A stretch of DNA of 34,180 nucleotides from an uncultured Gammaproteobacteria bacterium (lineage in GTDB: Bacteria > Patescibacteriota > Patescibacteriia > Magasanikbacterales > GWA2-37-8): assembly GCA_964439095.1 (NCBI GenBank), contig CAYTMT010000002.1, positions 1-34,180 of the forward strand. The letters are read 5' to 3'. Shown piece by piece: positions 9,060-34,180 of this stretch. Position 1 is the stretch's first letter, and each line of letters opens with the position of its first letter. The position numbers were made by a program, and so were the translations under genes. The notes beneath the pieces were generated by a model. That model was not told the origin of the DNA and ran no database searches. It saw only the letters and a list, made by a program, of their open reading frames with translations.

Positions 9060-9073
9060 AGTTCCGCTTGGAC

Positions 9074-9145: not shown

Positions 9146-9152
9146 CAAAAAA

Positions 9153-9186
9153 ACAGAGCCCAGAAAATAAAGGCTCTGTTTTATTT
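9153..9186 (+). terminator. Intrinsic terminator after tRNA-Cys
   Basis: Stem acagagcc 9153-9160 pairs with ggctctgt 9172-9179, followed by ttttattt. Confidence 0.75.
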
Positions 9187-9222
9187 GCCGAGCAACCAAA
9201 AAACACGTACAATGTGGGTACT

Positions 9223-18779: not shown

Positions 18780-19211
18780 TCAGGCTGTTCCACGCGGAAC
18801 TGTAGATATTATGAGTTTTATTTTTTTATCCATGCTTTTTAAGTTAAGCACTTCTTTTTTCCATTTTTTAAATAAGTCCTTTCTTTTTCCATAGAGCCTG
18901 CCATTAAGAGTGGGAAAAAGATTCTTCTTTATTGTTTCTTTACTGCGTATAAGCAAAAGAACATAATTGCGATTGCTGTGGGTGTATCGGTATATTTTTT
19001 CTGTTAATCCTAGTTTTGTTTTTATTAGTTCGATTAGAGGTGCATCGGAGATGTGTGTTTTTATTTGGAAAACAGGTATTTTTGTCTTGTTTTGTTTTAT
19101 CCAAAGAAAAGATCCGCTGGTGGCAATAACTCCAGCGACAAAATCAAGGGAAGGTAGTTTTATTTTTTTATCCATATTTGGGGCATTATTATATGTTTCT
19201 CTGTGAAACAT
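18780..19211 (-). CDS. Free-standing single-motif LAGLIDADG-like homing-endonuclease homologue with a degenerate catalytic motif
   Basis: 143 aa (131 aa if it starts at the ATG at 19175). The motif LDFVAGVIATSGSF (19107-19148) aligns with the LAGLIDADG core G-[FL]-[IF]-[DE]-G-[DE]-G-S-F, but Ala and Ser replace the acidic residues. The downstream beta-rich region and basic C-terminus resemble the I-CreI-type layout. Very AT-rich, with 18/60 G+C counted at 18841-18900. Confidence 0.6.
   Translation of the reverse strand: MFHRETYNNAPNMDKKIKLPSLDFVAGVIATSGSFLWIKQNKTKIPVFQIKTHISDAPLIELIKTKLGLTEKIYRYTHSNRNYVLLLIRSKETIKKNLFPTLNGRLYGKRKDLFKKWKKEVLNLKSMDKKIKLIISTVPRGTA
18814..18833. repeat. 20-bp direct repeat, copy 1 (agttttatttttttatccat)
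   Basis: Identical to 19156-19175. On the coding strand both copies encode MDKKIKL, near the C-terminus and at the N-terminus of the LAGLIDADG-like ORF respectively. Confidence 0.9.
19156..19175. repeat. 20-bp direct repeat, copy 2
   Basis: Identical to 18814-18833, with a 342-bp spacing. Confidence 0.9.
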
Positions 19212-19301
19212 TATAGACTGTAAAAAAACAGACTGTCAAGCCTGTTTTTTTGTGGTAAATAAAAGCACATAGTTACCCACAGTAATTTTTGTTAAATATC
19301 C

Positions 19302-19330
19302 TTGGTGGTGATCGTAGGTTATGGTATACT
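19302..19330 (+). promoter_or_regulatory. Extended -10 promoter at the head of the surface-gene block
   Basis: TTGGTG 19302-19307, 17-nt spacer containing TG at 19322-19323, TATACT 19325-19330. Confidence 0.5.
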
Positions 19331-19363
19331 GTACTTGGATTGAGTAATAATTTTTTTGTTTGT

Positions 19364-21685
19364 ATGTTTAATAACAAACTCGTTCGGCTATTTGATATGG
19401 CGACGTATATTATTTTGTTCATTATCGCAATCACCATTCCATTGTTTGTTGATAAGCACTTGGTAAATGCGTACGTTGTTCCTAAACAATATCTGTTTGC
19501 AGGGTTAATATTAGTGGCGTTGCTTACGGTTGCGGTCAAAACAGTGTTGGCAAAACGAGTTGAGCATGTTCGTTCGGTAATAGACACGCCGATTTTTGTT
19601 GTGTTGGGACTTTCATTATTATCGAGTTTGTTGGCAATAAATACATCAGATAGTTTTTTAGGTAGAAACGATTCTTTTGGGCTTAATTTTATTTTTATTG
19701 CAGTATCGGCTCTGTATTATTTTTTGTTGGTGAATTATGTGCGCACGGTGGGGCGTTGGCAGGCAATGTTGAATGTGCTGGTTGCAGTCGGAGGGGTAAC
19801 AGCAACTTTGTTTGTACTCAAATCCTTGTTTCATTTAGACTTACTTGCCTGGATAGCCCCGGGAATTTGGAATACGGTCGAAAAAATCAATAGCCCGTTT
19901 GGTTTGTGGTTAGTGATCGTGTTTGTGCTTTCCGCAGGACAGCTTATTCGTAAGGATGTTGCTCCAGGAAAAATGCTCCTATCTTTTTTTGTCATGCTTG
20001 TGTCTCTGGTTTCGCTTGTTCAATTGAGTTTCGTTATTTTGTGGTGGCTGTTATTTGCTGGAATTTTACTTCTCCTCCTTTTGGGCGTAATGTTTATTCA
20101 TGAGTCGCGACTAGGCTGGTTGTCGGTGTTGTTTTCGGTGCTTATTCTTACAACAGTATTTATCTTTTTCGGCACACCTAAAACTTTACAGTCAGCAGTT
20201 CCAGTGGAGGTCTCTTTGGGAATTAAACCTTCTTGGAGTGTGGCTGGAAAGGTTTTGTTTTCTGGTATTAAGCCATTTTTTATTGGTAATGGATTGTCTT
20301 CATTTGGTGTTTCGTTTTCTCAATTTCGTCCAGTGGGTTTTAATGCCGACCAGCTCGCCTGGAATCTTCGTTTTAGTCAGCCGCAGAACACCTTTATTGA
20401 ACTCCTGGCTAGTGGTGGGGTAACACTCGCGCTCGCTTTTGTTTTTGTGGTATTACTTCTTCTTGGTCATGCATTCCAAATTTTGTTTAAGCTGCGTTCA
20501 GAAAATGTAATGCAAGGATTGGTTACGCGTTTGGCGGGTATTCCACCACTAGCTATTGAAATTTTTTTGGTGGTAGTAGCGTGGGTGGTAGCAACGATTG
20601 GTATGGCATTTGTGTTCTACGGACCAACGTTATGGATTATGTGGTGGTTACTTCTTGGGCTTACTGTAAGTGGGCTGGCTTTTTTGGATAACGGACTCAC
20701 TTCGGTGCGTGAGTGGGTAGTGGAGGAATCTCCGCAATACAGCTTGTCGTTTTCTTTTTTGTTAATTATTGTGATGGCAGCAGTTGTGCTGAGTGGAATT
20801 TTTGGAGCACGGTTGTATTTGGCAGAAATGGATTACGCTAAGGCGCTTCAGAGTAACGCGCAAGATGCGGAAAGGTTTTTGTTGAGCGCGTTATCTAAGC
20901 GAAGTAATTTTGATTTGTATCATGCGGCGCTCGCTCAGGCCTATCTGGTGGACGCAGTACAGGCCAGTCAAGCAGCGAAGCCTGATGTGCAAGCAATAAA
21001 CACGTTGATGGGAAATGCGGTAAACGAAGCGCGGACCGCAATGGATTTATCGCCACGGTCGGTGATGATTGCAGAGAATTTAGCTACTATGTACGAGAAC
21101 ACAGCAGCGCTTATTCCTGGAGCGCGTGATTGGGCGATAAAAACATTGGAGGAGGCACGAGTGCTTGAATCAACAAATCCAGTATTGCGTTGGCGTTTAG
21201 GTAATAATTATGCGGGGGCTGGAAAATGGGAAGATGCTATCAAAAACTATCAAGCTGCAATTGATCTTAAACAGGATTATGTGGCGGCCTATGTAAGTTT
21301 GGCTGTGGCATATCAGGCTACAAACGATTTAGATAAAGCAGTAGAAACATATCGTATTATTGCTCCGGCCGGGATAAATAATTCTGATTATCTTTTTCAG
21401 TTTGGAAAATTATTGTTTAATCGTAATAAAGGCACTGATCGTGCTGATGCTGAAAAGTTGTGGTTGGAGGCAGTGCGTATTACTCCTAATTTTTCCAACG
21501 CGTTGTATAGCCTTGGTTTGCTCAATGAAACAAAAGGAAATAACACCGAAGCTCTTCGGTATTACTACAAGGTGCGCGATTTAAATCCGGACAATAAAGA
21601 TATTATTACTAAAATTAAAGCGTTGGTGGGAGGAGACAGCGCTCCAACTCCAGCTGTTGCAAAACCAGGAGAAAAAAAACGCTAG
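19364..21685 (+). CDS. O-antigen ligase/polymerase-like (Wzy_C-type) polytopic membrane protein with C-terminal TPR repeats
   Basis: About 12 TM helices followed by a periplasmic-type loop (GNGLSSFGVSFSQFRP). The C-terminal third has TPR repeats (GKWEDAIKNYQAAIDLKQDYVAAYVSLAVAY..., ALYSLGLLNETKGNNTEALRYYYKVRDLNPDN). The ATG at 19364 is preferred because the ORF-track start at 19289 precedes the promoter. Confidence 0.8.
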   Translation: MFNNKLVRLFDMATYIILFIIAITIPLFVDKHLVNAYVVPKQYLFAGLILVALLTVAVKTVLAKRVEHVRSVIDTPIFVVLGLSLLSSLLAINTSDSFLGRNDSFGLNFIFIAVSALYYFLLVNYVRTVGRWQAMLNVLVAVGGVTATLFVLKSLFHLDLLAWIAPGIWNTVEKINSPFGLWLVIVFVLSAGQLIRKDVAPGKMLLSFFVMLVSLVSLVQLSFVILWWLLFAGILLLLLLGVMFIHESRLGWLSVLFSVLILTTVFIFFGTPKTLQSAVPVEVSLGIKPSWSVAGKVLFSGIKPFFIGNGLSSFGVSFSQFRPVGFNADQLAWNLRFSQPQNTFIELLASGGVTLALAFVFVVLLLLGHAFQILFKLRSENVMQGLVTRLAGIPPLAIEIFLVVVAWVVATIGMAFVFYGPTLWIMWWLLLGLTVSGLAFLDNGLTSVREWVVEESPQYSLSFSFLLIIVMAAVVLSGIFGARLYLAEMDYAKALQSNAQDAERFLLSALSKRSNFDLYHAALAQAYLVDAVQASQAAKPDVQAINTLMGNAVNEARTAMDLSPRSVMIAENLATMYENTAALIPGARDWAIKTLEEARVLESTNPVLRWRLGNNYAGAGKWEDAIKNYQAAIDLKQDYVAAYVSLAVAYQATNDLDKAVETYRIIAPAGINNSDYLFQFGKLLFNRNKGTDRADAEKLWLEAVRITPNFSNALYSLGLLNETKGNNTEALRYYYKVRDLNPDNKDIITKIKALVGGDSAPTPAVAKPGEKKR

Positions 21686-21701
21686 TAAATTATTTGGGTG
21701 T

Positions 21702-22328
21702 ATGAAAAAAATATGGGTGTTAGTATTGTTGGTGGTGTGTGGAATTCCGGCGGCAGTATTTGCAGCCATGTCTTCGACGAACTATACAATTTACGCGGAT
21801 AGCGTTGATACTGGTGATGTGTTTGCAGCTGGTGGTGGTTATGAGCTTTCGGGAACGGTAGGCGAATCCCCTGCTGGTTTTTCGACGAGCACCTCGTATG
21901 AGGTGCGTGCTGGATATCAAGCCATGGAGCGCGGTGAGTTGACGGTAAGTTTAGATCCAGAAACGGTATCGCTCGGTACGCTAAACACGTCAACCGTGGC
22001 TAGTGCTTCTGTGATAGCGCGGGTAACTAGCGATGCGGATACTGGTTATTCGCTCTCTGTTGGAGGGGTAAGTAACGCATTGCTTGATTCGGTGGCAGAC
22101 GGAAGTGTAAGTGCGGGTGCAGGAGAGTATGGTATGGCGGTGAGTGGGGCTGATAGTGTGGTTGGTTTGGAAGATGTGGCGGTAGTTTCCAACCAAGTCT
22201 TAGCGGCTTCATCGACAGCAGTAGTTGATAGTGCAACTGTCTTGACGTTTAAGGCTTCGATGAGTGAAGCAACTCCTCCAGGAACTTATAATCAAACAGT
22301 AGTTTTGCAAGTAGTAGCAAATTTTTAA
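21702..22328 (+). CDS. Small secreted beta-rich protein (WxL/SCPU-like surface subunit, tentative)
   Basis: 208 aa from the ATG at 21702. Signal peptide MKKIWVLVLLVVCGIPAAVFA. Duplicated SSTNY/STSTSY strand motifs. The C-terminus PPGTYNQTVVLQVVANF resembles the terminal strand of WxL and spore-coat-U-type subunits. No Trp-x-Leu motif. Confidence 0.7.
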   Translation: MKKIWVLVLLVVCGIPAAVFAAMSSTNYTIYADSVDTGDVFAAGGGYELSGTVGESPAGFSTSTSYEVRAGYQAMERGELTVSLDPETVSLGTLNTSTVASASVIARVTSDADTGYSLSVGGVSNALLDSVADGSVSAGAGEYGMAVSGADSVVGLEDVAVVSNQVLAASSTAVVDSATVLTFKASMSEATPPGTYNQTVVLQVVANF

Positions 22329-22346
22329 TTGCCACAGCAATTTGTC

Positions 22347-23252
22347 ATGTTAAAGGATAACATACAATATAGTTGGTTTTTTAGAGCTTTATTACCAGTA
22401 GCGGTATTATCTTTTTTGGTTTTGGGAGGAGTACAGCGTGTTTTGACGGCTGGTTTTGGGATTAGTCCCCCACGTGGAGTGGTTACTGTGGCACCAGGCG
22501 GGGAAACTGTTATAAGTCAAACTATTAAAAACGATTCCACAAAAACTACTCATTTTCGACTGCAAGTGATGGGTGTTGTCCGTAGTGCAACGGGCGGAAT
22601 TGTATTAGTCTCGGGGCGAGATGTAGCTGAGGCTTGGATAAAAACAGAAAAGAGCGACATGTCTATTGGTCCAGGGAAGGAAGAGAAGGTTCAATATGTT
22701 ATTGCAGTACCAAAACGAGTTTTGCCTGGCTCGCACTATGTGGGTTTGGTAGCGGAAACAGTTCCAGAGGGAGGAGTAAACGAAAGGGCGGTTGGAATTA
22801 CCACGCGCCTCGTTACTATTCTTACTGTTCAAGTTTCAGGTGTTGTGGAAGAGAAAATCTCTCTTGTGAATTGGCAACTGAATGGTGTATGGTGGAACAG
22901 TGTGCGGGCAGTACAATTACGTTTAAAAAATGAAGGAGCAATTGAAGTGCCAATTCGGATACAGTTAATGGGACGCGACTGGTTTCATCATCGACAACAA
23001 TTTACTATCCCTTTTGATCGACAAGTTTTGGTTGGCGAAGAGCGAGATGTTTTGGAAGTAATTAATGTTGCAGGAATGAAAAATACGTTTATTGGGCCGA
23101 CCGCTTTGGAGCTCGTTGTTTCGTATGGTCGTACTGCGCAAGTAATCGTCAGTGCTAGAACGGTCTGGTTTGTGCCTGGTTGGTTGGTTGGGTTAGTGGG
23201 TGCAGTGGTGGTTTTAGGAGGGGTATTTTTATGGCAGAGAAAACGTACTTAG
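22347..23252 (+). CDS. Two-domain beta-sandwich protein with C-terminal TM anchor (DUF916/DUF3324-like architecture, tentative)
   Basis: N-terminal signal or anchor, an Ig/chaperone-like pattern (ISPPRGVVTVAPGGETVISQTIKNDSTKTTHFRLQV), a second beta domain, then TM GWLVGLVGAVVVLGGVFLW and the basic stop-transfer sequence QRKRT. An alternative TTG start at 22329 abuts the upstream stop. Confidence 0.7.
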   Translation: MLKDNIQYSWFFRALLPVAVLSFLVLGGVQRVLTAGFGISPPRGVVTVAPGGETVISQTIKNDSTKTTHFRLQVMGVVRSATGGIVLVSGRDVAEAWIKTEKSDMSIGPGKEEKVQYVIAVPKRVLPGSHYVGLVAETVPEGGVNERAVGITTRLVTILTVQVSGVVEEKISLVNWQLNGVWWNSVRAVQLRLKNEGAIEVPIRIQLMGRDWFHHRQQFTIPFDRQVLVGEERDVLEVINVAGMKNTFIGPTALELVVSYGRTAQVIVSARTVWFVPGWLVGLVGAVVVLGGVFLWQRKRT

Positions 23253-23253
23253 T

Positions 23254-24018
23254 ATGCAGCGTGTTTTGTTAGTATTTTTAATCACAACAGGAACACTGAT
23301 CGGTGTTTTTTCGTGGTTGTCGGCTTCGGCAGAAACCAACTATCAAGGAGTGGTAATAAGTTTAACGGTGCCCAGCTCAACGGCGGGTGCTTATTGTGGT
23401 AATGGTGTTGTTGAAGCAGGAGAAGAATGTGATGGTGGTGGGAGTAACGGCTCATGTCCGGCAAATTGTAGCTCTACATGTGCCCCCAATTCATGTGGTG
23501 ATGGGGCAACATCGGACACAACCAGTGTTTTAATAAAAGCAAAACCAGAGAAACGTTTTTTGGGCGAGTCAGGACAACGCGACAATTTTGGCACGATCAT
23601 TCTGCTATCTTTTTTTGATCCAAATTCTTTGAGTTCTCCCCAAGAGATGGTTTTGGCTACCAATGATCAGGGAGAAGTAATAATAGACAAAAATAACTTG
23701 CCAGATTTAGCACCTTTTTCGGGGTGGTCTGCTACTGTAAAAGGACTATCACATCTGACAAAAAAAATTATCAATGTTGATGTGATTAGAAATCAAAGAA
23801 CGGTATGGGACTTTACTGCTAATAATCAAAATTTTTTATTGGCGGGTGATGTGCAAGCAAGAAAAGATGATGTGGTAGATGTTCAAGATATTTCTGCAAC
23901 GCTCACTGCATTTGGAGCGCAGAAAGATAAAAACGCTGATTTAAACAACGACGGTGTTGTTGATGTGCAAGATATTAGTATTATTCTTCCTAATTTTGGT
24001 AGCATCGGTGATAAATAA
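23254..24018 (+). CDS. Secreted protein with Cys-rich CGNG..EECD repeat and C-terminal dockerin-like tandem Ca-binding repeats
   Basis: Signal peptide. YCGNGVVEAGEECDGGGSNGSCPANCSSTCAPNSCGDG at ~23392-23505 is of the myxococcal-type cysteine-rich repeat kind. DVVDVQDISATLTAFG...DLNNDGVVDVQDISIILPNFGS at ~23845-24010 is a dockerin-type duplicated F-hand pattern. Confidence 0.75.
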   Translation: MQRVLLVFLITTGTLIGVFSWLSASAETNYQGVVISLTVPSSTAGAYCGNGVVEAGEECDGGGSNGSCPANCSSTCAPNSCGDGATSDTTSVLIKAKPEKRFLGESGQRDNFGTIILLSFFDPNSLSSPQEMVLATNDQGEVIIDKNNLPDLAPFSGWSATVKGLSHLTKKIINVDVIRNQRTVWDFTANNQNFLLAGDVQARKDDVVDVQDISATLTAFGAQKDKNADLNNDGVVDVQDISIILPNFGSIGDK

Positions 24019-24024
24019 TTTTTT

Positions 24025-26724
24025 ATGTCTTTTTTTTCAAAACGAGTGGGTGTGGTGGTGGGGGTGTTAAGCGCGGTACTTATTTTTCCGATATCGGTTT
24101 TTGCGGCCGCCTCTTTTGAATTGAGTCCAAGTGGTGGGTCGTTGGTGGCGGGGTGTTCTCAAACCATCAAGGTTATTATGAAAACGGATAGTGTGGTAAA
24201 TGGAGCGCAAGTGTATCTGAATTATAGCGGTTTAGGAAATGCAGATTTATCGATAGAAAAAGGTACTGCTTTTTCTTCGTACGGCGTTTCACCTGAAGTG
24301 TTGCCGAGTAATATGAAAATGCGCTATGGCTATGGTGCGGATGTGATCGGCCAAAATCTCGAATTTGCGAATATTGTTTTTTCTCCGCAGCAGGTTGGTT
24401 CGAATGTGTTGTTAACCATTAATACAACAAACATTAATAATGGGACAAAAATAAGCAAAATTGCCCGCGCTTTGGATGGTCAGAATATTTTAACAAACAC
24501 GATTGATGGGTCCTACACAGTGGTGAGTGGGTATTGCGATTATAATGATCCTGTTTTTGTTTCTTCTACTCCAGCAAAAAACGCTGTCAATTTTCCGGTA
24601 GATAAGGATATTATTTTGGATGTAACTGATACTGGTGGTTCGGGTATCGACGCTAATTCATTTTTGGTAGAGGTAACTCAAGGGGGTAGCACAGTTCCTG
24701 TGCAAGTTTCCTACACCAAGATAGGGTTAAATGATAATCATTATTTGTTTACCGTCCATCCTGTTTCTAATTTAATCCCCCAAGTAAAAGTGACAGTAAA
24801 TGCGAGTGTGAGGGATAGGGCAAATAATTCCGGAAATGAAAATATTACTTTTAACGACCTTACCTGCCAACAACTTGGTTGTGTTGATTCAGGGACCATT
24901 ACTCCTACTTCAACAAGTTCATCAACTTCTTCTGGTGGTGGTACGGGGATTACCCCACAATGTAGTGATCATGAAGATAATGATGGCGACGGACTGATTG
25001 ACTACCCGGCAGATCCAGGCTGCAAGAGTCCGGAGTGGAACAATGAATATGTGGCTGGTGAAGCGCAGAATCCTAACCCTACCACTGGTGGTGGCACCCA
25101 AACCTCTGCTTTGTTGACCGTGGACAATGTGCATTTTTATTTAGCACAAGGATCTATTGAAGCTCATTTAGGGTCTGGTTCAACATTGGAACACCTGCCG
25201 CAGTCATCTTTAAAAATTGCAGTTGATACGAATATTGGTGAAGGGGTAACTGCCGCGAAAGTTATTTTGGGTGAAATGCGACGGGATATGTTTTTTGATA
25301 ATGCCCTTAAAAAATACGCAGTAGAATTATTTACCCCAGAGGGCTCTAGTGTGATTGATGGCACAGTAACCGTAGTTCATGGGAGTATAACTGAGTCAGT
25401 GCCGTTTCATGTTGTGCTATTACCGTTAGGAAAAATTTTTACTAAGACAGTTGTGGGGGGTGAAAAAAATTTAGCTGGAGCGCATGTTTTTCTAGACCAG
25501 CTCACGGGGGCAAATAATTTTGTACCAGTCAAAGAAGCGTTTACCAACGAAAACGGTGAGTATTCTTTTGTGGTCCCAAACGGAGGGTATCGTTTGCGCG
25601 TTCAGACAAGTGGTATCTCAACCGAAGAAACAGCGGGTTTTCGAATTACGAACAATATTGTGAATCGTCCTGTGGGTATTCTTATTCCTCCCAATCCAGA
25701 CGCCTCACTTTCAGAACAAATTCAATATGTAGCTGAGGTTGTGGCACGTCAGAGCGGAAAGACTTTGGGGCGTATCAATGATCCGCAGGTAGAAAAAATA
25801 GTAGGAAACCAGATAGCTCCTTTAGCCGCGGCTACAACCGCTTTGGCAGTTGTTCCTGCGTTGTCGCTTTTGAATCTTCTTTCATATTTGCGCTATCTGT
25901 TCTTACAACCACTCCTTCTCCTGCGTCGTCGGCAACGAAAAGAATGGGGTGTGGTCTATAATACGCTGAACAAGTTACCGGTTGATCTGGCTGTGGTGCG
26001 TTTGATTGAGGTAAGTGGCGGCAAGGTGGTGCAGTCGCGTGTTACCGATCGCGAAGGCCGATTCGCTTTCTTTGTTTCCGTTCCTGGTTTGTATCGAGTT
26101 GAAGTTAATAAAGATCGTTTTATTTTCCCGAGTAAAATTCTTCAGGGAATTTCTGAGGATACCTCATTTTTGGACCTGTATCATGGTGAGCCAATTCATG
26201 TTGATGTAAAAGATACGGTAGTAGCGGTAAATATTCCGCTTGATCCGATGGGTGGGATAGAAAAAACACCAAGCCGTATTATTTGGGATCGTAGTTTTCG
26301 TCAATTTCAAGTAGCTTTATCGCAATTTAGTATTGCTGCCGGAATAATTTCACTTCTTATTACCCCTACTTGGTTTGTAGGAGGGTTGCTCGTATTGCAA
26401 GTTGTTCTGTATGCGCTATTTCGACGGTTAAGTCAACCGAATAAACCAAAAAGCTGGGGCATTGTAAGTGATTTACGTCAAAAAACACCGGTAGAACGAG
26501 TCATTGCTCGGTTGTTCTCGAAGCAATTTGATAAACTTGTGGCCACTGAGGTTACTGACGGCAAAGGACGGTATTCGTTTTTGGCTGGTCCCAGTGATTA
26601 TTATGTTACTTTTGAAAAAAATGGTTATAAAAAAGAAATAGTAGAGGGTGTTCGGGTGAAAGAACACGGTGAAACGGTAAAAAAAGACGTGTCAATACAA
26701 AAAATTGAGGAAGATAAAAAATAG
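24025..26724 (+). CDS. Large envelope protein: cohesin-like N-domain, Ig-like domains, DNDGDG..DPGC motif, CarboxypepD_reg-like domains interleaved with TM segments
   Basis: 899 aa. Signal peptide, then a cohesin-like segment (FELSPSGGSLVAGCSQTIKVIMKTDSVVNGAQVYLNYSG) and SbsA/Big-like repeats. These are followed by an S/T linker, CSDHEDNDGDGLIDYPADPGC, three NGEYSF/EGRFAF/KGRYSF beta-sandwich modules, and hydrophobic segments near 25813-25920 and 26330-26420. Confidence 0.85.
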   Translation: MSFFSKRVGVVVGVLSAVLIFPISVFAAASFELSPSGGSLVAGCSQTIKVIMKTDSVVNGAQVYLNYSGLGNADLSIEKGTAFSSYGVSPEVLPSNMKMRYGYGADVIGQNLEFANIVFSPQQVGSNVLLTINTTNINNGTKISKIARALDGQNILTNTIDGSYTVVSGYCDYNDPVFVSSTPAKNAVNFPVDKDIILDVTDTGGSGIDANSFLVEVTQGGSTVPVQVSYTKIGLNDNHYLFTVHPVSNLIPQVKVTVNASVRDRANNSGNENITFNDLTCQQLGCVDSGTITPTSTSSSTSSGGGTGITPQCSDHEDNDGDGLIDYPADPGCKSPEWNNEYVAGEAQNPNPTTGGGTQTSALLTVDNVHFYLAQGSIEAHLGSGSTLEHLPQSSLKIAVDTNIGEGVTAAKVILGEMRRDMFFDNALKKYAVELFTPEGSSVIDGTVTVVHGSITESVPFHVVLLPLGKIFTKTVVGGEKNLAGAHVFLDQLTGANNFVPVKEAFTNENGEYSFVVPNGGYRLRVQTSGISTEETAGFRITNNIVNRPVGILIPPNPDASLSEQIQYVAEVVARQSGKTLGRINDPQVEKIVGNQIAPLAAATTALAVVPALSLLNLLSYLRYLFLQPLLLLRRRQRKEWGVVYNTLNKLPVDLAVVRLIEVSGGKVVQSRVTDREGRFAFFVSVPGLYRVEVNKDRFIFPSKILQGISEDTSFLDLYHGEPIHVDVKDTVVAVNIPLDPMGGIEKTPSRIIWDRSFRQFQVALSQFSIAAGIISLLITPTWFVGGLLVLQVVLYALFRRLSQPNKPKSWGIVSDLRQKTPVERVIARLFSKQFDKLVATEVTDGKGRYSFLAGPSDYYVTFEKNGYKKEIVEGVRVKEHGETVKKDVSIQKIEEDKK

Positions 26725-26758: not shown

Positions 26759-26767
26759 TGGTATAAT
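26759..26767 (+). promoter_or_regulatory. Extended -10 element (TGgTATAAT) 7 nt upstream of the giant-ORF ATG
   Basis: TG 26759-26760, TATAAT 26762-26767, ATG 26775-26777. No SD fits in the 7-nt gap. Confidence 0.5.
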
Positions 26768-26774
26768 AAGGTAT

Positions 26775-29700
26775 ATGGAAAAAATTGATCGGCTGTTGAA
26801 AAAGAATCGAAAGAGAACTCGGGCCATTTTAATGTTGGGGCCATTATTTTTCTTTGTGTTTTTGTTTTTTGGGCTCGTAGCCCGTTCTTCTTTTGCTGTA
26901 GCCGCAGCGGTTCCAGACGTTATAACGTATCAAGGTAAATTGTTGCTGAATAATGCTTCGGTAACGACTACTGTCCCAATACAGTTTGTTCTCTATGACA
27001 CTCCCAGCGCTGGAACGATTTTGTATACGGCCAGCGGAACTATAGGGGCTCCAGCAGCAACAGCAGTAACTCCAAATAAAGGCTTATTTAGTGTTGAGTT
27101 AGGTGGAAGTGGAACAAATCCATTAGACGCGGGCGTAGTATTTAAAAATAATAGCTCTGTTTATCTGGAAGTAACGGTAAACGGTGAAACCCTTTCTCCT
27201 CGCAAACGTTTAACGGCTAGTCCGTATGCTTTTAACGCAAAATATTTAGACGGTATTGCCGCCACAAGCACCCCCACTAGCTCAGCATATATTCCAGTAG
27301 CGGATTCTTCTGGTAATTTTAGTTTTAATCGGGTAACTTCAACCGGTTTTGTAGTGTCTGGCACTTCAACCTTGGCTACAACTACTATTTCTAGTTCGAC
27401 TATCGGGGTAGCGAATGTGGGGAATCTCTTTTTGACAAATGCCACCGGCACGAACTTATTTGTTTCCAGTCTTTCTGCGAGTAGTAGTGTTTTTTCCAGT
27501 GTTACGTCGAGCAATTTTTCCGTTACTGGTAATTTAGACATAACCACAGCGGTAATTCTTGGTCTCTCTACCGCGGATCTTTCGGATAGTAGCAGTCTGG
27601 CATATTTGGTTGGTGCAAATACCTTTACTGGTCCAAATACTTTCTCTGGAAATACTACTTTGGCCACTACTACCATTAGTTCTTCTACTATTTTTACTGC
27701 CAATATTAACTCGCTTAATGTTTTGTCTTCCTTGTCGTTGCCTGTTGCCTCAATTCTCGAGGCCTATCTTGCTCCTAATTCTGTTTCTTCCACCACGCTA
27801 AAATCAACAGGAGTAGTGGCTGGCACCTATGGTTCAGCCACACAAACAGCTCAATTTGTGGTGGATGAAGATGGTCGCATCCTTTCAGCCACCAATGTAA
27901 CTATCATTTCTTCATCTACAAGCCCTTCATCATCTTTTGATGGTACCATCGCTGCGGGTGATTTGTCGGGCACCTATCCAAATCCAACCGTGAGTAAAAT
28001 AAATGGCAATACATTGGGTAACACGGCCATTACTGGTGGTAACATTTTAGTGGCCAGCAGCACAGCAGGTTGGACATCGGTAGCGCTGGGGGGTGATGCG
28101 ACGATTGATTCTTCTGGTTTACTTTCCATTACCAACAATACGGTTACGGTGGCCAAGTTAGTAGCAGGTGATTTTTCTAGTAAAATAAATACTGGTACTT
28201 ATTCTATTAATGTTACCGGAACCGCTTCGAATGTAACTGGTGTGGTAGCATTGGCTAATGGTGGAACCAATGCAAACGCTAGTTTCTTCACTACCCCGGG
28301 CGAGTTTATTATCTATGATGGAAGTCGGTTAGTGGGGGCTGGTTTTTCTTCATCTTCGTTTGCTTTGACTAGTCACACACACTCCGCGGCAGATATTACG
28401 GCCGGTATTTTTTCGGGGGTAAGTTATACGTTCGCTAATGATTTGGCAGTATCTGGTTTTTCAACATTCCGTACCACCACCATCAGCTCTTCTTCTATTA
28501 CCACCGCCAATATTAACTCGCTTAATGTTTTTTCTGCCCTCACTCTTCCAGCTGCCTCAATCCTCGAAGCCTATCTCGCTCCTAATTCTGTTTCTTCCAC
28601 CGCGCTTAAATCAACGGGCGTAGCCAGTGGAATCTATGGTTCGGCCACGGAAATTGCTCAGTTTGTGGTTGATGAAGATGGGCGTATTCTTTCGGCCTCT
28701 AATGTTTCTATCGCCGCTTCTGTTACTACCACAGTGACTACTACTCTTGATGGCACCGCCGGCGGTGATTTGTCGGGCACCTATCCGGACCCAACCGTGA
28801 GTAAAATTAATGGTAACACGCTCGGCAATACGGCTACCACCAGTGGACATATTTTGGTAGCGAGTAGTACGGCAGGTTGGACATCGGTAGCGCTCGGTGG
28901 TGACGCAACGATTGACTATAATGGTTTGTTGTCAATTACAAATAATACTATCACCGCGGCCAAGCTAGCAGCTGGTGATTTTTCGAGTAAAATTAATGCG
29001 GGCACATACACAATTAGTGTCACCGGTACAGCCGATAACGTTACCGGCGTGGTAGCTATTGCCAACGGTGGTACAAATGCAAATGCCAGTCATTTTACTA
29101 CTCCGGGTGAGTTTGTAATTTATGATGGCAGCCGGTTGGTTGGATCAGGATTCACATCGTCTTCCTTTTCTTCGGGTGGTAGCCATACCCATCCTGCTTC
29201 GGATATTACCGCCGGTACTTTTGGCGGGTCGAGTTATGTATTTGCTAATGATTTGGCGGTGTTGGGTTCGGCGACTTTTGCTACTGCTACGGTACAGAAT
29301 GCGTTGCAAACCGACTCTGGGTTATTTTTATCGCAAGTTGGTTTGGCTGTTCCTAATTTGTTAACTAACCCTTCTTTTGAAAGTGGTATCACCAACTGGG
29401 GTGATCGACTTGGGTTTTTGGGTGGCAGTACATATTCAGTAACCAGCACTGCTTATAGCGGGTCTTCTGCCTTGCAGTTAGAGGCCAGGCTAGATTTGAG
29501 TGGGTTTTTTGGTGGCCCACCGCTTAAAATCGGCTACTTTTATCACGATACTTCTAATGTAACGCAAAGCGCTAGTAGTACTATTAGTTTTTATGCCCGC
29601 GGTGCAGTTGGTGGCGAACACGCGCGTATTTTGATTGAGCGTGATCCGGGTACTGGGCAAGCTGGTTGTGGTGGTAGTTTAGCTTCGGTTTATAATTTTA

Positions 29701-32700
29701 CCACTGGTGGTTGGGATTGCGTGGATTTACAAACAAGTGTGGCGGCTTTTGCGGTTGCTTCGCCGAATACTCAATCTTTTAGTTTAACTACAAGTTATCA
29801 ACGTTTTAATGCTACCTTTAATCCGGGTGCCTATGGTACGGTGCAAATCTCTATATTAGCCGGTGGTGCCTCGGCCTATAATGATGAAGTAGTTTTGTAT
29901 GATGCATTTAAATTGGAAGCAGGTAGCACTCCGTCATCATTTGATGGTGGTTCATCACCCATGTTCGCTTTAAAAAATAATAACGCAGCGGCGGACTATA
30001 ATTCACAAACATCACTACTATCTGTTCAGGATTCGGCGGCTACTAATTTTTTCCAGATTATGGGTGATGGCCGGGCCAATGTTGGTAGTGCCAGCGTTAC
30101 TGGTTCCATTGCTGTTTTTGGTCGTGGTTCAGAGCAAACAGTGCTGAATGGCTATGGGCAATTATTATCCCGTGGCGCATTTGGCTCTGATGATACGCTG
30201 ACTAGTGCTACTGGATCGCAGTTTATCTGGTATCCAAAGCGGGGTGCATTTAGAGCTGGGTATACTGATACGCTCACCTGGGGAGATAATACAATTGGTA
30301 ATTATTCATTCGCCGCAGGTAACGAAGTTTCCGCGCCCGGTGTTGGTGCGATTGCGTTTGGTAAAAACGTAACAGTAACCGGAGCAAATTCGGTGGCTTT
30401 TAGTGCTAGTTCCACACTTTCCACAGTCGCCAATGATAATATTTTTTCATTGCTTGGGTATAAGGTGGGTATTGGCACGGTTAATCCGGCCACCGCTTTA
30501 GTGGTAGTGGGTACTACCACTCTCGAGAATTTATCAGTAACCGGTTCTACTACGCTTGATAATATTAGCCCAACAGGAATAAATCCGGTGCTAACAGTAA
30601 CTGGTGGTTTAAAGTTGGGGTATGTAGGTTCTGCTGCTCTTGGTACGTTGCGGTGGAGCGGATCGCGATTGGAGTGGTACGATGGTTCTTCGTGGGTAGC
30701 AACATCTTTGCCGGCAGCGACGGATAATGGCACTACACTCCGATATGATGGTGCCGAATGGGTGACGAGTACTTTTTTACGGAATCTTTATAGTAGTTCT
30801 CAAATTAATATTAATAACGCAACCGGCAGTGCGGTATTAGCAGTGCGTGGAAGTGATCTTGAGTTACCTATTGCGGAGTTTTACAATGGACGTAGTGGTT
30901 TTGAAGATGTTCCTGCTATCCTTTCTATTCAACAAGGTGGTGGTGGAAGTGGTTGGGTAGGGATAGGAACAAGTACACTAGATTCAGTATGGGAACCAAA
31001 GTTGTTGGTAAAAAGTGACAGTGGTGCTCTAATGAAGCTCGATGGTGGAGTTGATGGTCTCAGTAACGAAATTTCTCGTACTCTTCTTTTTACTGGTCTT
31101 GGTCGTCTATCATTAGGAACCACTACTGCGGCAACAGTGAATGCCGCGAAGGTGACAATCGTTGGTGAAGGATCCACTGGAGCCACAAATCCATTGCAAG
31201 TGTTGCGTAATGATGGTACATCAAATTTTGTTATCCGTGATGATGGAATGGTTTTTGTTAAAAAAGGAAGTTTGATTGTAAATTCTGATTCCACTGCTTT
31301 GTCTCGTCCGGCGTTGTATGTGACCAGAAAATCAGGCGATATTAGTCAGGTCATTGCGCAGTTTACTGATAACGCCAGTTCAACTTTGGCCAACACCATT
31401 CTTAGTATCAATGCTGGCGGTATCCAAATTAACACTACAACTCTTGATTATTATAGTGTCGCAGGGATTCAAGGTGTTGGCGGAATTTCTATGGTAGATA
31501 GTGGCAGCTCGCCAGGTGTTGCCACCGGACCGCGTTTTTTGTGGAGTGGCAGTAAATTTCGAGTGGGCACATTTAATAGTGAGTTTGGTTTGGGGGCTGA
31601 CACTATCGCCCTTGGCACTGATGCTTATGCCGACCAAATTGAGGCCACTGCTCTCGGCTTGCATGCGTTGGCTACTGGGCGGAGGTCTTTAGTGTTGGGA
31701 AACGGAACTGCCTCTGGTGATTTTTCAACAGCAATTGGTAATGCGGAGTTCGTGTCAGTTGGTCATGATAAAGCGAATAGTTTTAATGTTCCCGAGGCCA
31801 GTGGTTATGGTGCGATTGCCATCGGGAGTGGAAGCATAAGTCAAAACTTTGGTGCCAAGACTCTGGCTGCAGGGACATCGTCACTTGCCATTTTTGGTAT
31901 AGCTTCTGGTACACAGTCGGTGGCGTTGTGGGGTGATGCTTCCGGCGACAATTCAATGGCTTTTGGGCGTTATACTTCTATCACTGCTTCTGGTGCTGTG
32001 GTATTAGGGCGGGGTGTTGATAGTAATAACCCGTTATTAAACACTACCAACAATTCTTTGGCTGTTGGTTTTAATTCTGATGTTCCCACCTTTTTTGTAG
32101 GTGGTGGTTCGGGAGTTGGCACATATGGCCAAGTAGGTATTGGCACCACCAACACTGCGTACACACTCGATGTGCGCGGTACTTTTGGCGCCACCGGTAC
32201 TTCCACTTTAGCCACCACCACCATTACCGCAGTCGCGAGCAGTTTAATACCTACCGAAGATAATGTATTTAGCTTGGGTACGTCGCTCATTCGCTGGAAA
32301 GATTTGTATGTAAGCTCCAGTAGTTTGCATATTGGCGCAGATGGTGCCGAGGGCAGCATTCATTATAATACTGATGACCATTATTTATCATTCAACGCGG
32401 GTAGTGGTATTGCCAGTCAACTGGTGATTGTAAGTAGCACTGGTTTTGTGGGTATTGGTACGACTACGCCTAATGCTGTGCTTACCGTGGGTGGTGGTGC
32501 GTATTTGGATGGCGGCTTGGAAGTAACTGGAAGTGCCACATCAACTGGTGATCAATATGTAGGTGGAAATTTATCAGTGATAGGATTAAGTCATTTTGCA
32601 AACCTTACTTGGGATAGTGCAACGGGCACGAGTGTGTTTCTTTCAAATGCAACGGCCATTGATGCTATGGTGGGAAATTTAACAGTGACGAGCACTCTCG

Positions 32701-34180
32701 ACGTAAGCGCTGCAACTATTACTGGGCTTTCCACTAGCGATTTGTCTGATGCGAATACAATTGCCTATCTAGCGCCCGATCAAACATTTACCGGGCAAAA
32801 CAATTTTACCAATCGAGTAACAATTGCTACGGCCACAGTTTATGCTTTCGAAAGCGATTTATTGGCATCAGAAGATGATCTCTATTCTTTAGGATCTTCC
32901 ACTAATCGTTGGCGCAAAGTATTTGCTAAAACTGGTATATTTGGCACTGCTGGAATGAATGATCCATTAACCATCAGTGAGAGCGGTATCGTGGCCAACG
33001 GTATGATGTCGTTGAGCGTTCAAAATATTGGTGCGGGTGGGGTAACATTGAGTTCAAATGGATCCGCATCTCTTCAGGTGACGGGGAATAATATTTCTTT
33101 GAATGGAGATTTGGCTACGGTGGGTGGAGGGTTAACCGTTGTAAACACTTCAACGCTTGCTACCACTACGATTTCTGGGAACCTGGGAATTGGAACAACC
33201 ACACCGGCATATCGATTGACATTGGATGGCGATGGAGTGATTGTGGCACACGGTGAATTTGGAGTGGGAGCAGACGCACCAGATGGTCCAGGAACGCGGT
33301 TGGTGTGGTTACCGCAGAAAGCGGCCTTTCGGGCTGGAGTAGCGGAAGGTGGACAGTTTGACAATGCAAATATTGGAAATTATTCCACTGCGTTTGGTCT
33401 TAATGTTACTTCGTCTGGGGCGGGAAGTTTTGTGACGGGGGTAGATAATGATGTGACAGGGGACTACTCTTTCGGTACAGGGCGATACAATTCGGTCAGT
33501 GGAATTTATTCAGCTGCGTTTGGTGTGTTTAACACTGTTTCTGGTAGTATTTCAGTGGCATTAGGTTCTGGTAATCATCTAAATAAAGTTTATTCTTATG
33601 TTCTTGGCTCAGCCAATATACTTGACTCTGAGTCGTCTTTTGTGTTGGGGGAAGGCAATATTATAGACGGCCAGCCTTCAGCTACAGTTTTAGGGGTGGG
33701 TAATGTTCTTCATGATGGAGGTGTGGCTATTGGTCATATAAACCAAGTAACATCATCTGGTTTTGCCGCTGGTTATGCTAATAGAGTTGAGGGTAACAAT
33801 TACGCCTTTGGTTATGGAAATGTAATCGGTAACGGAAATGTTTCGTCAACAAATTCAGCCTTTGCTTTTGGAAATAATCTTAATATAACAGGGGGTGGTG
33901 GGTTTGCAATAGGTTCAGGGGTTTCCATTCACGATCTTTTGGTAAACGATATTGCAGATTCACTATTTGTTGGATTTAATTCTAACCTACCAACATTGTT
34001 TGTTGGCCCAAGCAATGGTGTAGGAACATTTGGGAGTGTTGGTATCGGTACGACAAATACTTTGTCAATACTTACGGTAAATGGTGACGTAACTCCGGCA
34101 CTTGATGGGGTTTATAGCTTAGGTACGTCAACCTATAGATGGAAAGATTTATATTTAAGTTCGAGTAGTTTACATATTGG
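26775..34180 (+). CDS. Giant modular surface fibre / adhesin-like protein, 3'-partial (more than 2468 codons, runs off the window)
   Basis: This ORF is not in the ORF track. The in-frame stop TAA at 26715-26717 precedes it, and the first start codon after that stop is the ATG at 26775. I hand-translated the frame whose codon starts are multiples of 3. Codon-by-codon checks over 26998-27060, 27990-28080 and 29340-30360 found no stop. The track lists no frame-matching ORF anywhere in 7.4 kb, as expected for an ORF lacking a stop in the window. N-terminal signal-anchor MEKIDRLLKKNRKRTRAILMLGPLFFFVFLFFGLV, then S/T/G-rich fibre modules. Confidence 0.9.
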   Translation, partial: MEKIDRLLKKNRKRTRAILMLGPLFFFVFLFFGLVARSSFAVAAAVPDVITYQGKLLLNNASVTTTVPIQFVLYDTPSAGTILYTASGTIGAPAATAVTPNKGLFSVELGGSGTNPLDAGVVFKNNSSVYLEVTVNGETLSPRKRLTASPYAFNAKYLDGIAATSTPTSSAYIPVADSSGNFSFNRVTSTGFVVSGTSTLATTTISSSTIGVANVGNLFLTNATGTNLFVSSLSASSSVFSSVTSSNFSVTGNLDITTAVILGLSTADLSDSSSLAYLVGANTFTGPNTFSGNTTLATTTISSSTIFTANINSLNVLSSLSLPVASILEAYLAPNSVSSTTLKSTGVVAGTYGSATQTAQFVVDEDGRILSATNVTIISSSTSPSSSFDGTIAAGDLSGTYPNPTVSKINGNTLGNTAITGGNILVASSTAGWTSVALGGDATIDSSGLLSITNNTVTVAKLVAGDFSSKINTGTYSINVTGTASNVTGVVALANGGTNANASFFTTPGEFIIYDGSRLVGAGFSSSSFALTSHTHSAADITAGIFSGVSYTFANDLAVSGFSTFRTTTISSSSITTANINSLNVFSALTLPAASILEAYLAPNSVSSTALKSTGVASGIYGSATEIAQFVVDEDGRILSASNVSIAASVTTTVTTTLDGTAGGDLSGTYPDPTVSKINGNTLGNTATTSGHILVASSTAGWTSVALGGDATIDYNGLLSITNNTITAAKLAAGDFSSKINAGTYTISVTGTADNVTGVVAIANGGTNANASHFTTPGEFVIYDGSRLVGSGFTSSSFSSGGSHTHPASDITAGTFGGSSYVFANDLAVLGSATFATATVQNALQTDSGLFLSQVGLAVPNLLTNPSFESGITNWGDRLGFLGGSTYSVTSTAYSGSSALQLEARLDLSGFFGGPPLKIGYFYHDTSNVTQSASSTISFYARGAVGGEHARILIERDPGTGQAGCGGSLASVYNFTTGGWDCVDLQTSVAAFAVASPNTQSFSLTTSYQRFNATFNPGAYGTVQISILAGGASAYNDEVVLYDAFKLEAGSTPSSFDGGSSPMFALKNNNAAADYNSQTSLLSVQDSAATNFFQIMGDGRANVGSASVTGSIAVFGRGSEQTVLNGYGQLLSRGAFGSDDTLTSATGSQFIWYPKRGAFRAGYTDTLTWGDNTIGNYSFAAGNEVSAPGVGAIAFGKNVTVTGANSVAFSASSTLSTVANDNIFSLLGYKVGIGTVNPATALVVVGTTTLENLSVTGSTTLDNISPTGINPVLTVTGGLKLGYVGSAALGTLRWSGSRLEWYDGSSWVATSLPAATDNGTTLRYDGAEWVTSTFLRNLYSSSQININNATGSAVLAVRGSDLELPIAEFYNGRSGFEDVPAILSIQQGGGGSGWVGIGTSTLDSVWEPKLLVKSDSGALMKLDGGVDGLSNEISRTLLFTGLGRLSLGTTTAATVNAAKVTIVGEGSTGATNPLQVLRNDGTSNFVIRDDGMVFVKKGSLIVNSDSTALSRPALYVTRKSGDISQVIAQFTDNASSTLANTILSINAGGIQINTTTLDYYSVAGIQGVGGISMVDSGSSPGVATGPRFLWSGSKFRVGTFNSEFGLGADTIALGTDAYADQIEATALGLHALATGRRSLVLGNGTASGDFSTAIGNAEFVSVGHDKANSFNVPEASGYGAIAIGSGSISQNFGAKTLAAGTSSLAIFGIASGTQSVALWGDASGDNSMAFGRYTSITASGAVVLGRGVDSNNPLLNTTNNSLAVGFNSDVPTFFVGGGSGVGTYGQVGIGTTNTAYTLDVRGTFGATGTSTLATTTITAVASSLIPTEDNVFSLGTSLIRWKDLYVSSSSLHIGADGAEGSIHYNTDDHYLSFNAGSGIASQLVIVSSTGFVGIGTTTPNAVLTVGGGAYLDGGLEVTGSATSTGDQYVGGNLSVIGLSHFANLTWDSATGTSVFLSNATAIDAMVGNLTVTSTLDVSAATITGLSTSDLSDANTIAYLAPDQTFTGQNNFTNRVTIATATVYAFESDLLASEDDLYSLGSSTNRWRKVFAKTGIFGTAGMNDPLTISESGIVANGMMSLSVQNIGAGGVTLSSNGSASLQVTGNNISLNGDLATVGGGLTVVNTSTLATTTISGNLGIGTTTPAYRLTLDGDGVIVAHGEFGVGADAPDGPGTRLVWLPQKAAFRAGVAEGGQFDNANIGNYSTAFGLNVTSSGAGSFVTGVDNDVTGDYSFGTGRYNSVSGIYSAAFGVFNTVSGSISVALGSGNHLNKVYSYVLGSANILDSESSFVLGEGNIIDGQPSATVLGVGNVLHDGGVAIGHINQVTSSGFAAGYANRVEGNNYAFGYGNVIGNGNVSSTNSAFAFGNNLNITGGGGFAIGSGVSIHDLLVNDIADSLFVGFNSNLPTLFVGPSNGVGTFGSVGIGTTNTLSILTVNGDVTPALDGVYSLGTSTYRWKDLYLSSSSLHI
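27663..29279 (+). repeat. In-frame tandem duplication inside the giant ORF (copy 1 27663-28469, 807 bp; copy 2 28470-29279, 810 bp)
   Basis: The two 269/270-aa units align end to end (ISSSTIFTANINSLNV...FANDLAVSGFSTF versus ISSSSITTANINSLNV...FANDLAVLGSATF). The anchor gccaatattaac occurs at 27699 and 28506. Each unit contains an S-H-T-H motif (HTH codons at 28374-28382 and 29184-29192). Confidence 0.9.
30213..34180 (+). repeat. Three diverged super-modules inside the giant ORF (starts 30213, 31527, 33291)
   Basis: Each opens with G-x-x-F/L-x-W-x-x-x-x-x-F-R-x-G: GSQFIWYPKRGAFRAG, GPRFLWSGSKFRVG, GTRLVWLPQKAAFRAG. Short G/N/S/A-rich repeats of YadA-head type follow (IGNYSFAAGNEVSA..., GDFSTAIGNAE..., GDYSFGTGRYNSVSG...). 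The last two end with the near-identical junction YSLGTS..RWKDLY.SSSSLHIG at 32259-32336 and 34103-34180, exactly 1845 bp apart. Confidence 0.8.

Follow-up and report, generated by a model that had tools for sequence, protein, structure and literature searches.

Our analysis concerns a 34,180-nt stretch of contig CAYTMT010000002.1, which we refer to as the window, and more specifically the giant open reading frame (ORF) that fills its last 7406 nt. Our data show that this ORF is a real gene that is cut off at the window end, and we consider it likely that its product is a Sec-exported, trimeric, chimeric adhesin fibre of an ultrasmall Patescibacteria bacterium (candidate phyla radiation, CPR), following the design of the Bdellovibrio mosaic adhesive trimer (MAT) fibres and of the fibre-like proteins encoded next to Pam operons. 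Judged from its architecture, the fibre most likely serves to grip other cells. The features of the gene are listed below, where a residue number (aa) is converted to a window coordinate as nt = 26775 + 3(aa − 1).

26759 to 26767, plus strand: extended −10 element, an exact TGnTATAAT match read from the sequence, ending 7 nt before the ATG
26775 to 34180, plus strand: giant ORF of at least 2468 codons, with no in-frame stop and 95 homologues (E down to 9e-153)
26775 to 26903, plus strand: predicted signal peptide (aa 1-43), with a basic n-region, a 20-aa hydrophobic core, and the site A41-V42-A43|A44
26904 to 27374, plus strand: conserved N-terminal module (aa 44-200), comprising an immunoglobulin (Ig)-like sandwich (aa 47-146) and a tail, YIPxSDSSGNFxF
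27645 to 28451, plus strand: repeat copy 1 (269 aa), carrying GDLSGTYPNPTVSKINGNTL, LANGGTNANAS, and HTHxAxDITAG motifs
28452 to 29268, plus strand: repeat copy 2 (269 aa), from self-BLAST and DNA self-comparison
29352 to 30029, plus strand: possible CBM4_9-like jelly-roll domain (aa 860-1085), a weak match to Pfam CBM_4_9 (E = 4e-4)
30072 to 30554, plus strand: diverged YadA-like head 1 (aa 1100-1260), from self-similarity to heads 2 and 3, high-scoring segment pairs with homologues, and a weak Pfam YadA_head match
30555 to 31571, plus strand: region without detected relatives (aa 1261-1599), including GTLRWSGSRLEWYDGSSW-type motifs, with no Pfam match
31572 to 32144, plus strand: YadA-like head 2 (aa 1600-1790), Pfam YadA_head at 45.2 bits (cut-off 25), with 5 stretches on the tile
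32238 to 32339, plus strand: stalk-type motif 1 (NVFSLGTSLIRWKDLYVSSSSLHIG), from a motif scan, paralogous to the window end (50-58% identity)
32853 to 32954, plus strand: stalk-type motif 2 (DLYSLGSSTNRWRKVF), matching positions 106-156 of Pfam End_tail_spike (E = 7.7e-5)
33222 to 34034, plus strand: YadA-like head 3 (aa 2150-2420), whose regular beta-roll repeats every 14 residues
34083 to 34178, plus strand: stalk-type motif 3 (GVYSLGTSTYRWKDLYLSSSSLHI), from a motif scan and a Pfam tile, cut by the window end

The reality of the gene rests on its open frame and on its relatives. An in-frame stop (TAA at 26715-26717) precedes the ORF, and the ATG at 26775 is the first start codon, there being no ATG, GTG, or TTG between the two. 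From this ATG, translation yields 2468 sense codons plus 2 nt up to base 34180 without a single stop; the other five frames of the same 7406 nt contain 141, 216, 73, 172, and 119 stops. With stops at a mean rate of ~5.8% per codon, the probability that 2468 codons would stay open by chance is ~e^-148. Its coding nature is further supported by matches to 95 database proteins, with E values ranging from 9e-153 to 1e-12. It is the longest gene of the window, followed by polA (2877 nt), and its absence from the mechanically generated ORF list is explained by the rule that frames continuing past the end of the source are left out. The initial annotation, which had described a very large fibre-type gene with this start and preceding stop, open to the last base, dropped from the ORF list for want of a terminal stop, larger than any other gene in the window, and with its 3' end lying outside it, was correct in all of these respects. 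Its main points stand, and three details require the corrections given below: a signal-anchor, a fold said to be typical of fibre N-termini, and a repeat-rich body.

The window ends with '...SSSSLHI' plus 'gg', and an internal paralogue of this end reads '...SSSSLHIGADG' or '...HIGADGAEG'. Since the paralogous copy runs on beyond '...SSSSLHI', the giant gene clearly extends past the window end. Exact 59-mers taken from the end gave no match in genome or metagenome contig collections. The cluster record of p307, a protein encoded upstream in the window itself, lists a 37,345-bp contig, so that ~3.2 kb exist outside the window, on one side or the other. The GC content is even over the whole ORF, and Tandem Repeats Finder found no long short-period array in it; as the sole duplication is only 72-78% identical at the DNA level (period, 807-810 nt), there is no sign of repeat collapse inside the window. 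The extended −10 element just ahead of the ATG has no −35 match and was therefore not reported by the consensus promoter scan. Its sequence suggests that the giant gene may be transcribed from a promoter of its own, and the transcript might have little or no leader.

The product begins with a basic n-region and a single hydrophobic stretch, as originally described, and hydropathy analysis showed that the core of this stretch is the only hydrophobic 19-mer stretch of the giant protein. It had been taken for a signal-anchor. In 63 homologues, the residues before a conserved P-x-IITYQGKLL strand follow the pattern A/V-x-A|A-x-x-P, with Ala at position −6 in 50 of them, Ala at −5 in 57, and Pro at −2 in all 63. 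The conserved A/V-x-A|A pattern obeys the rule for signal-peptidase I sites, and the stretch is therefore more likely a Sec signal peptide that is cleaved off than an anchor.

Directly behind the predicted cleavage site lies the conserved N-terminal module (N-module). AlphaFold2, run with a 35-sequence alignment, modelled aa 47-146 as a seven-stranded Ig-like beta-sandwich, with a predicted local distance difference test score (pLDDT) of >90. The module occupies the N-terminus of 78 of the 95 giant homologues (31-64% identity), whereas the bodies that follow it differ from one homologue to another and include LVIVD beta-propellers, YadA heads, Peptidase_S74, and Peptidase_G2. It is present at 79 loci of reference genomes. 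An exhaustive profile search retrieved 303 cluster representatives at E<=1e-30; at E<=1e-10 the number rose to 11,206, a count that may be inflated by signal-peptide and S/T-rich columns. In a Foldseek search with the module, the PDB matches were all generic Ig-like folds (best E = 0.016), and BFVD gave no specific match. Moreover, tblastn found no match to it in 50,697 phage genomes, and a pattern-based scan of IMG/VR viral contigs found no relative. The early description of a beta-sandwich at the start of the protein thus agrees with the model, but given these phage-genome, IMG/VR, and Foldseek results, the phrase 'typical of fibre N-termini' applies no further than this cellular family.

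Ser, Gly, Thr, Ala, and Asn make up 54% of the residues of the giant product, in keeping with the S/T/G/N/A-rich composition first noted. The 'several kb of repeats' that went with it did not hold, since diverged modules make up the body as a mosaic, in which just one 269-aa unit is duplicated in tandem. The two repeats span aa 291-860, and self-BLAST showed that the copies are 69-83% (about 78%) identical at the amino acid level. Each carries the motifs GDLSGTYPxPTVSKINGNTL, (L/I)ANGGTNANAS, and HTHxAxDITAG, and the repeat aligns at 28-35% identity with DUF5907-bearing proteins of other lineages. In some phage fibres, HxH motifs are known to hold metal on the threefold axis. The CBM-like region that follows (aa 860-1085) contains the only two Cys of the giant protein, and a dedicated homologue search with this tile was empty.

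The body carries three YadA-like heads. A profile comprising the third head and homologue fragments (A5) was searched against the PDB and matched BpaC (3e-36), CbpF (1e-24), UspA1 (2e-17), a Hep_Hag protein (4e-15), and YadA (7e-11). The same profile matched the Bdellovibrio MAT fibre Bd2133 (PDB 8ond; E = 9e-5) over ~50 aa, on a GIGTTTP segment. AlphaFold2 modelled aa 2170-2290 of head 3 as a regular beta-roll with pLDDT >90, and its best Foldseek matches were the heads of BpaC, CbpF, AtaA, BoaA, and UspA1 (probability 1.00). On the strength of these profile and fold matches, the YadA-type beta-rolls of the body are homologous to the heads of obligate-trimer adhesins. In addition, a motif scan found six (V/L)GIGTxx(P/T)xxxL motifs, as well as three D/NxxYSLG(T/S)SxxRW(K/R) motifs (SLGTSxxRWKDLY type), both recurring after the heads; the latter give sub-threshold matches to the end of End_tail_spike, and both kinds appear to be of the tail-fibre or MAT-fibre type. 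Homologue coverage falls to approximately zero across aa 1361-1680. Only tiles and profiles gave domain matches; the whole giant protein yielded nothing usable against Pfam, NCBIfam, PHROGs, or the PDB. Neither the repeat unit nor the CBM-like or stalk tile found a match in the PDB.

Complete relatives indicate how such a protein may end. Among the 79 N-module ORFs in reference-genome loci, 40 are complete, and 32 of these have at least 1000 aa, with a median of ~1800 aa and a maximum of ~3500 aa. Complete homologues of 2000-4591 aa occur on contigs of up to 950 kb, 4591 aa being the longest found in the protein searches. A contig end truncates 37 of the 79 genes (47%), so assemblies routinely break within this gene family. 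One homologue (P0005) carries a C-terminal Peptidase_S74 domain and another (P0041) a Peptidase_G2 intramolecular chaperone (IMC) domain, and phmmer placed a domain resembling one or the other of these regions near the C-terminus of 56 of the 78 N-module homologues. A further 136-456 residues follow this domain, often forming an E/T/P/V-rich tail. No C-terminal or internal hydrophobic (transmembrane) segment and no LPxTG motif was present in any of the 78. As a separate observation, the Magasanikiibacteriota record JAPLWQ010000001.1 (L011, L035) has two giant N-module genes ~2 kb apart. One encodes 3332 aa; for the other, the locus shows at least 3542 aa and the protein P0024 has 4094 aa. No copy of the operon described below lies within 10 kb upstream of the first, so stand-alone paralogues exist.

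Five genes, p798, p223, p307, p254, and p899, lie upstream of the giant ORF at 19289-26724, on the same strand and nearly abutting:

19289 to 21685, plus strand: p798, polytopic membrane protein with C-terminal TPR repeats (Pfam) and ~11 hydrophobic segments (hydropathy)
21657 to 22328, plus strand: p223, putative secreted Pam-pilus-like pilin (NCBIfam CPR_pilus_PamT, E = 9e-14; Pam pilin C, E = 1.5e-6)
22329 to 23252, plus strand: p307, WxLIP-like protein with a signal peptide, Ig-like domains, and a C-terminal transmembrane helix (family profile, hydropathy)
23254 to 24018, plus strand: p254, secreted Cys-rich protein with a dockerin-like C-terminus (NCBIfam dockerin_GC, E = 4e-5)
24025 to 26724, plus strand: p899, protein with a signal peptide, Big_5, three CarboxypepD_reg-like domains, and three transmembrane segments (Pfam, hydropathy)

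We analyzed synteny in the 59 loci that have at least 7 kb of upstream sequence. The same-strand genes directly upstream of the N-module gene were p223, p307, and p899 in 31 loci, p223 and p307 only in 13, and neither in 15. Collectively, p223 and p307 keep their order, with or without p899, in 44 of the 59 loci, and p899 stands directly upstream of the giant gene in 31. Likewise, most related loci have p798 in a syntenic place ahead of the giant gene (42-54% identity), and p254 is found at only some of them. The giant gene is the last and most variable gene of the operon: the N-module and the upstream genes stay constant between genomes, whereas the body differs.

The family-level matches of p223 and p307 point to two known systems. 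PamT was matched by 24 of 25 members of the p223 family (best, 4e-18) and the pilin C-domain by 16 of 25, all below the curated cut-offs. The sole Trp of p223 lies inside its signal peptide; the protein has no Trp-x-Leu motif, and no WxL family match was found with Pfam and NCBIfam. For p307, whose gene-caller start is probably 22347, transmembrane-like hydrophobic stretches occur at aa 14-36 and 272-290. Its family profile matched the WxL-interacting protein (WxLIP) EfmWxLIP1 of E. faecium in the PDB (9i25; E = 7e-4), and Pfam WxLIP_PGBD was matched by 24 of 38 family members (best, 6e-7), the copy in the window doing so weakly (E = 0.12). The homologue search with p307 returned two proteins, and one p307 homologue is named a DUF916 protein by NCBI. 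The dockerin_GC match of p254 (23.9 bits) is below the cut-off of 29; this protein has a Cys-rich segment, CGNGVVEAGEECDGGGSNGSCPANCSSTCAPNSC, and no cohesin partner for it was identified. Searches with the membrane part of p798, including one of the PDB, gave no match, and no database record of p899 was found. According to NCBIfam, p223 is the sole Pam-like protein among the five operon genes and the giant ORF, and none is a major pilin (PamA/B/E). The locus resembles both Pam operons and WxL clusters and fits neither definition, as there are no major pilins, no Pam chaperone-type protein was detected, and p223 has no Trp-x-Leu.

Given this architecture, we anticipate that three chains would assemble into one long fibre. 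The N-module would be cell-proximal and would hold the fibre at the surface by binding an operon product, since no other anchor is found in any relative, and the N-module and the upstream genes stay constant. Surface structures of a host or partner cell may then be bound by the variable heads, by the CBM-like domain, and by the tip at the unseen C-terminus. The missing C-terminus could comprise an S74- or G2-type domain resembling an intramolecular chaperone followed by a low-complexity tail, as in most complete homologues, and such a chaperone may help the trimer to fold.

Several points weigh against an adhesin fibre of this kind. Host adhesion is read from the architecture and from what is known of CPR lifestyle. 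The C-terminus lies outside the window, and no S74- or G2-like domain was detected in the 2468 aa seen. The AlphaFold2 models of the head are monomers, and ~340 aa of the body (aa 1261-1599) have no relatives detectable by homologue segment pairs or Pfam. Some of the domain matches fall short of their thresholds, namely CBM_4_9 (21.2 bits; Pfam cut-off, 25.9) and, by a small margin, the End_tail_spike match of stalk motif 2 (23.3 bits; cut-off, 25). The same is true of p223, which is far under the equivalog cut-off for PamT (51 versus 240 bits) and scores 28 bits for the Pam pilin C-domain (cut-off, 55). No p307-family member matched any NCBIfam Pam model (the PamC/PamD content of the library was unchecked), and hhalign relates the N-module profile to neither the p223 nor the p307 family (probability 3%). 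Finally, the likeness between the N-module and the N-domain of MAT fibres is one of analogous position and beta-richness.

A bolder version of the adhesin model is possible, and we regard it as doubtful. It holds that the giant fibre is the distal, exchangeable 'warhead' of a Magasanikbacteria-specific surface organelle that works by strand complementation. After cleavage of the signal peptide, the invariant A-x-x-P-x-IITYQGKLL strand or the Ig-like module would be captured by p223 or p307, by donor-strand or beta-hairpin complementation. If true, strand capture would link the CPR Pam pili, the Firmicutes WxL clusters, and the MAT-type fibres of predators as one class of host-capture device, in which swapping the last gene alone could change the host range.

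The genomic setting bears on the alternatives. The window contains the genes for dnaA, rnpA, an AP endonuclease, trigger factor (tig), an H+-pyrophosphatase, an M23/LysM peptidase, polA, NDH-2, holA, and rmuC, together with three tRNAs. It is chromosomal, cellular DNA of Magasanikbacteria-like Patescibacteria (CPR), and not of a phage. The closest relatives of the giant protein and the 79 N-module loci are mostly labelled Candidatus Magasanikbacteria, Magasanikiibacteriota, or Patescibacteria, and the NCBI taxonomy places Magasanikbacteria as a phylum within the Parcubacteria group of Patescibacteria. Many third-party annotation (TPA) genome records with this operon are titled 'uncultured Gammaproteobacteria bacterium' (L003, L004, L006, and others). 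These titles are probably placeholders or errors, since all other records that have the operon carry a Magasanikbacteria or Patescibacteria label.

The readings that would replace the adhesin altogether fare less well. The protein could be a structural component of the envelope, such as an S-layer or sheath component, and not a host-binding adhesin, but we find this unlikely. It is secreted and S/T-rich, a beta protein of the very abundant type, and four p307-family members weakly match a 'putative S-layer protein' model; yet a hypervariable body behind a conserved N-module is the pattern of receptor-binding proteins rather than of lattice proteins, several paralogues occur per genome (e.g., the tandem pair on JAPLWQ010000001), and the heads are of the adhesin type. 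Very unlikely is the idea that the long frame is an assembly artefact, that is, a chimera or a collapse of shorter paralogous fibre genes. The family is indeed modular and paralogous, 37 of the 79 related genes are cut by contig ends, and the window itself ends inside the giant gene; against this, the frame is unbroken over 7.4 kb with even GC content, the internal repeats are too diverged for collapse, and complete homologues of 2000-4591 aa exist on contigs of up to 950 kb.

Two further candidates take their cue from the motifs and heads. We reject a classical trimeric autotransporter adhesin (TAA) secreted by the type Vc route, to which we attach scarcely any probability. Such a protein would explain the N-terminal signal peptide and the head repeats, which are truly homologous to TAA heads, but YadA_anchor (PF03895) and YadA_stalk are present in 0 of 95 homologues according to their precomputed Pfam domains. 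Furthermore, the C-termini of the homologues are IMC-like domains and low-complexity tails, the 78 N-module homologues lack a C-terminal hydrophobic segment (the C-terminus of the window's own protein being unseen), and Patescibacteria are generally held to have no outer membrane, which a type Vc anchor needs. A tail-fibre or tailspike gene of a phage or prophage carried in the chromosome is the least probable of all and is already largely refuted. What speaks for it are the tail-fibre-type motifs (the HxH and VGIGT motifs), the weak End_tail_spike match, and the homologues that carry Peptidase_S74 or that NCBI names 'tail fiber domain-containing protein'. However, the neighbours are housekeeping and surface-protein genes, with no phage structural, integrase, or terminase genes nearby; the giant protein has a Sec signal peptide, which virion fibres do not; and the same operon context recurs in dozens of genomes. 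In addition, tblastn matched neither the whole ORF nor the N-module in the 50,697 phage genomes, the module was not found in IMG/VR, and there was no PHROGs match.

Other observations concern the rest of the window. The genes dnaA (167-1576, minus strand) and rnpA (2285-2674, minus strand) lie at its start, and the cumulative GC skew climbs monotonically; taken together, these features indicate that the window probably adjoins the chromosomal replication origin. A tRNA-Cys (9074-9146) lies inside the mechanically listed polA ORF (9031-11907, with a TTG start at 9031), and the 5'-3' exonuclease domain begins at ORF residue 67, so the real polA start must be downstream of 9031. A membrane protein of the Phage_holin_4_2 family is encoded at 17497-17835 on the plus strand (Pfam E = 1.9e-33), in a neighbourhood that is otherwise non-phage. 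A free-standing LAGLIDADG homing-endonuclease ORF occupies 18780-19211 on the minus strand (Pfam E = 4.6e-7) and is preceded by a perfect TTGACA-18-TATAAT site (19239-19210); its surroundings gave no match to an rRNA, tRNA, or intron RNA family. Two other public samples have exact copies of p254 and p307 on 1-2 kb contigs, L001 (ENA ERZ4216102) and L081 (Logan SRR12487046), and therefore, the same population has been sampled elsewhere and assembled poorly there.

To our knowledge, little has been established about how CPR bacteria (Patescibacteria) recognise and hold their hosts, and almost none of them have been cultivated. With a constant attachment module and operon and a body that changes from genome to genome, the N-module gene family is a tangible candidate for the host-range determinant of Magasanikbacteria, and the locus extends components resembling the Pam pilus and WxLIP to the Parcubacteria group. 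Large Patescibacteria proteins annotated as 'tail fiber domain-containing' or hypothetical are already in the databases, and the MAT concept and the Pam-associated fibre-like protein have been published. In the literature that we searched, two things appear to be undescribed: the tight, recurrent Magasanikbacteria-like operon consisting of p798, a Pam-like pilin, a WxLIP-like protein, p899, and a variable giant fibre, and the family-wide N-module with an invariant P-x-IITYQGKLL strand at the predicted mature N-terminus. Contig ends truncate 47% of these genes, which are therefore missed systematically by ORF tracks without open-ended frames; giant N-module genes are good targets for long-read finishing.

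Among the known systems, phage tail fibres and tailspikes with intramolecular chaperones (e.g., K1F endosialidase and T5 pb1) share short stalk-type and HxH motifs with the giant protein, and IMC-type domains of the S74/G2 kind also occur in its relatives. Unlike these, the giant gene is cellular and its product Sec-secreted, with no virion module and no match in sequenced phages. TAAs (YadA, UspA1, BpaC, and CbpF) have homologous head beta-roll repeats, by profile (3e-36) as well as by fold, whereas the relatives of the giant protein have no YadA anchor or stalk, no outer membrane is expected, and the logic of export and attachment is different.

The upstream genes invite comparison with two gene clusters. 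The WxL clusters of Firmicutes encode a small WxL protein, a large WxL protein that binds the host, and a DUF916-DUF3324-TM protein (WxLIP) that is predicted to insert a beta-hairpin into its partner (PMC10599100). Like them, the window locus combines a small secreted protein, a DUF916-type Ig-like transmembrane protein, and a large variable protein with a shared conserved module, but p223 has no Trp-x-Leu, and the conserved module of the giant protein is Ig-like and N-terminal instead of being a C-terminal WxL domain. [quoted passage not shown] Both that system and the window locus occur in CPR bacteria and have a pilin (here p223, a putative relative of PamT and the Pam pilin C-domain), an adjoining tail-fibre-like giant gene, and, alongside, a membrane-anchored protein with two Ig-like domains (p307 here). 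In contrast to the Pam system, the window scores stay under the equivalog cut-offs, there is no PamA, PamB, or PamE-type pilin, and no Pam chaperone-type protein was detected; the window lineage belongs to the Parcubacteria group instead of Saccharimonadia or Microgenomatia, and p798 and p899 have not been described for pam operons.

The closest parallel in overall design is with the MAT fibres of Bdellovibrio bacteriovorus, which have been established by experiment to consist of a signal peptide, a conserved ~130-aa beta-rich N-domain, and a trimeric chimeric fibre with S74 or non-S74 tips; they sit on the surface of the predator, and one member has been shown to bind glycans (PMC10769870). 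In both the MAT family (e.g., Bd2133 and Bd3182) and the giant fibre family, the signal peptide stands directly before a conserved beta-rich N-domain, a long chimeric fibre is made of phage-tail-fibre-like elements with variable distal parts, and there are many paralogues, with S74-ending and non-S74 subfamilies among the relatives. The (V/L)GIGTxx(P/T)xxxL motif of the giant protein also resembles the MAT capping loop, V-G-G/N-pi-x-x-P-x-x-x-L, being one residue longer, and both kinds of fibre come from bacteria that live on other bacteria. The giant fibre differs in that it comes from a CPR bacterium, of a group that is generally held, and stated in the Pam preprint (bioRxiv 10.64898/2026.03.03.709456), to lack an outer membrane, and in that it is 2-4 times longer, contains YadA-type beta-roll heads, and is encoded last in an operon with a Pam-like pilin and a WxLIP-like protein.

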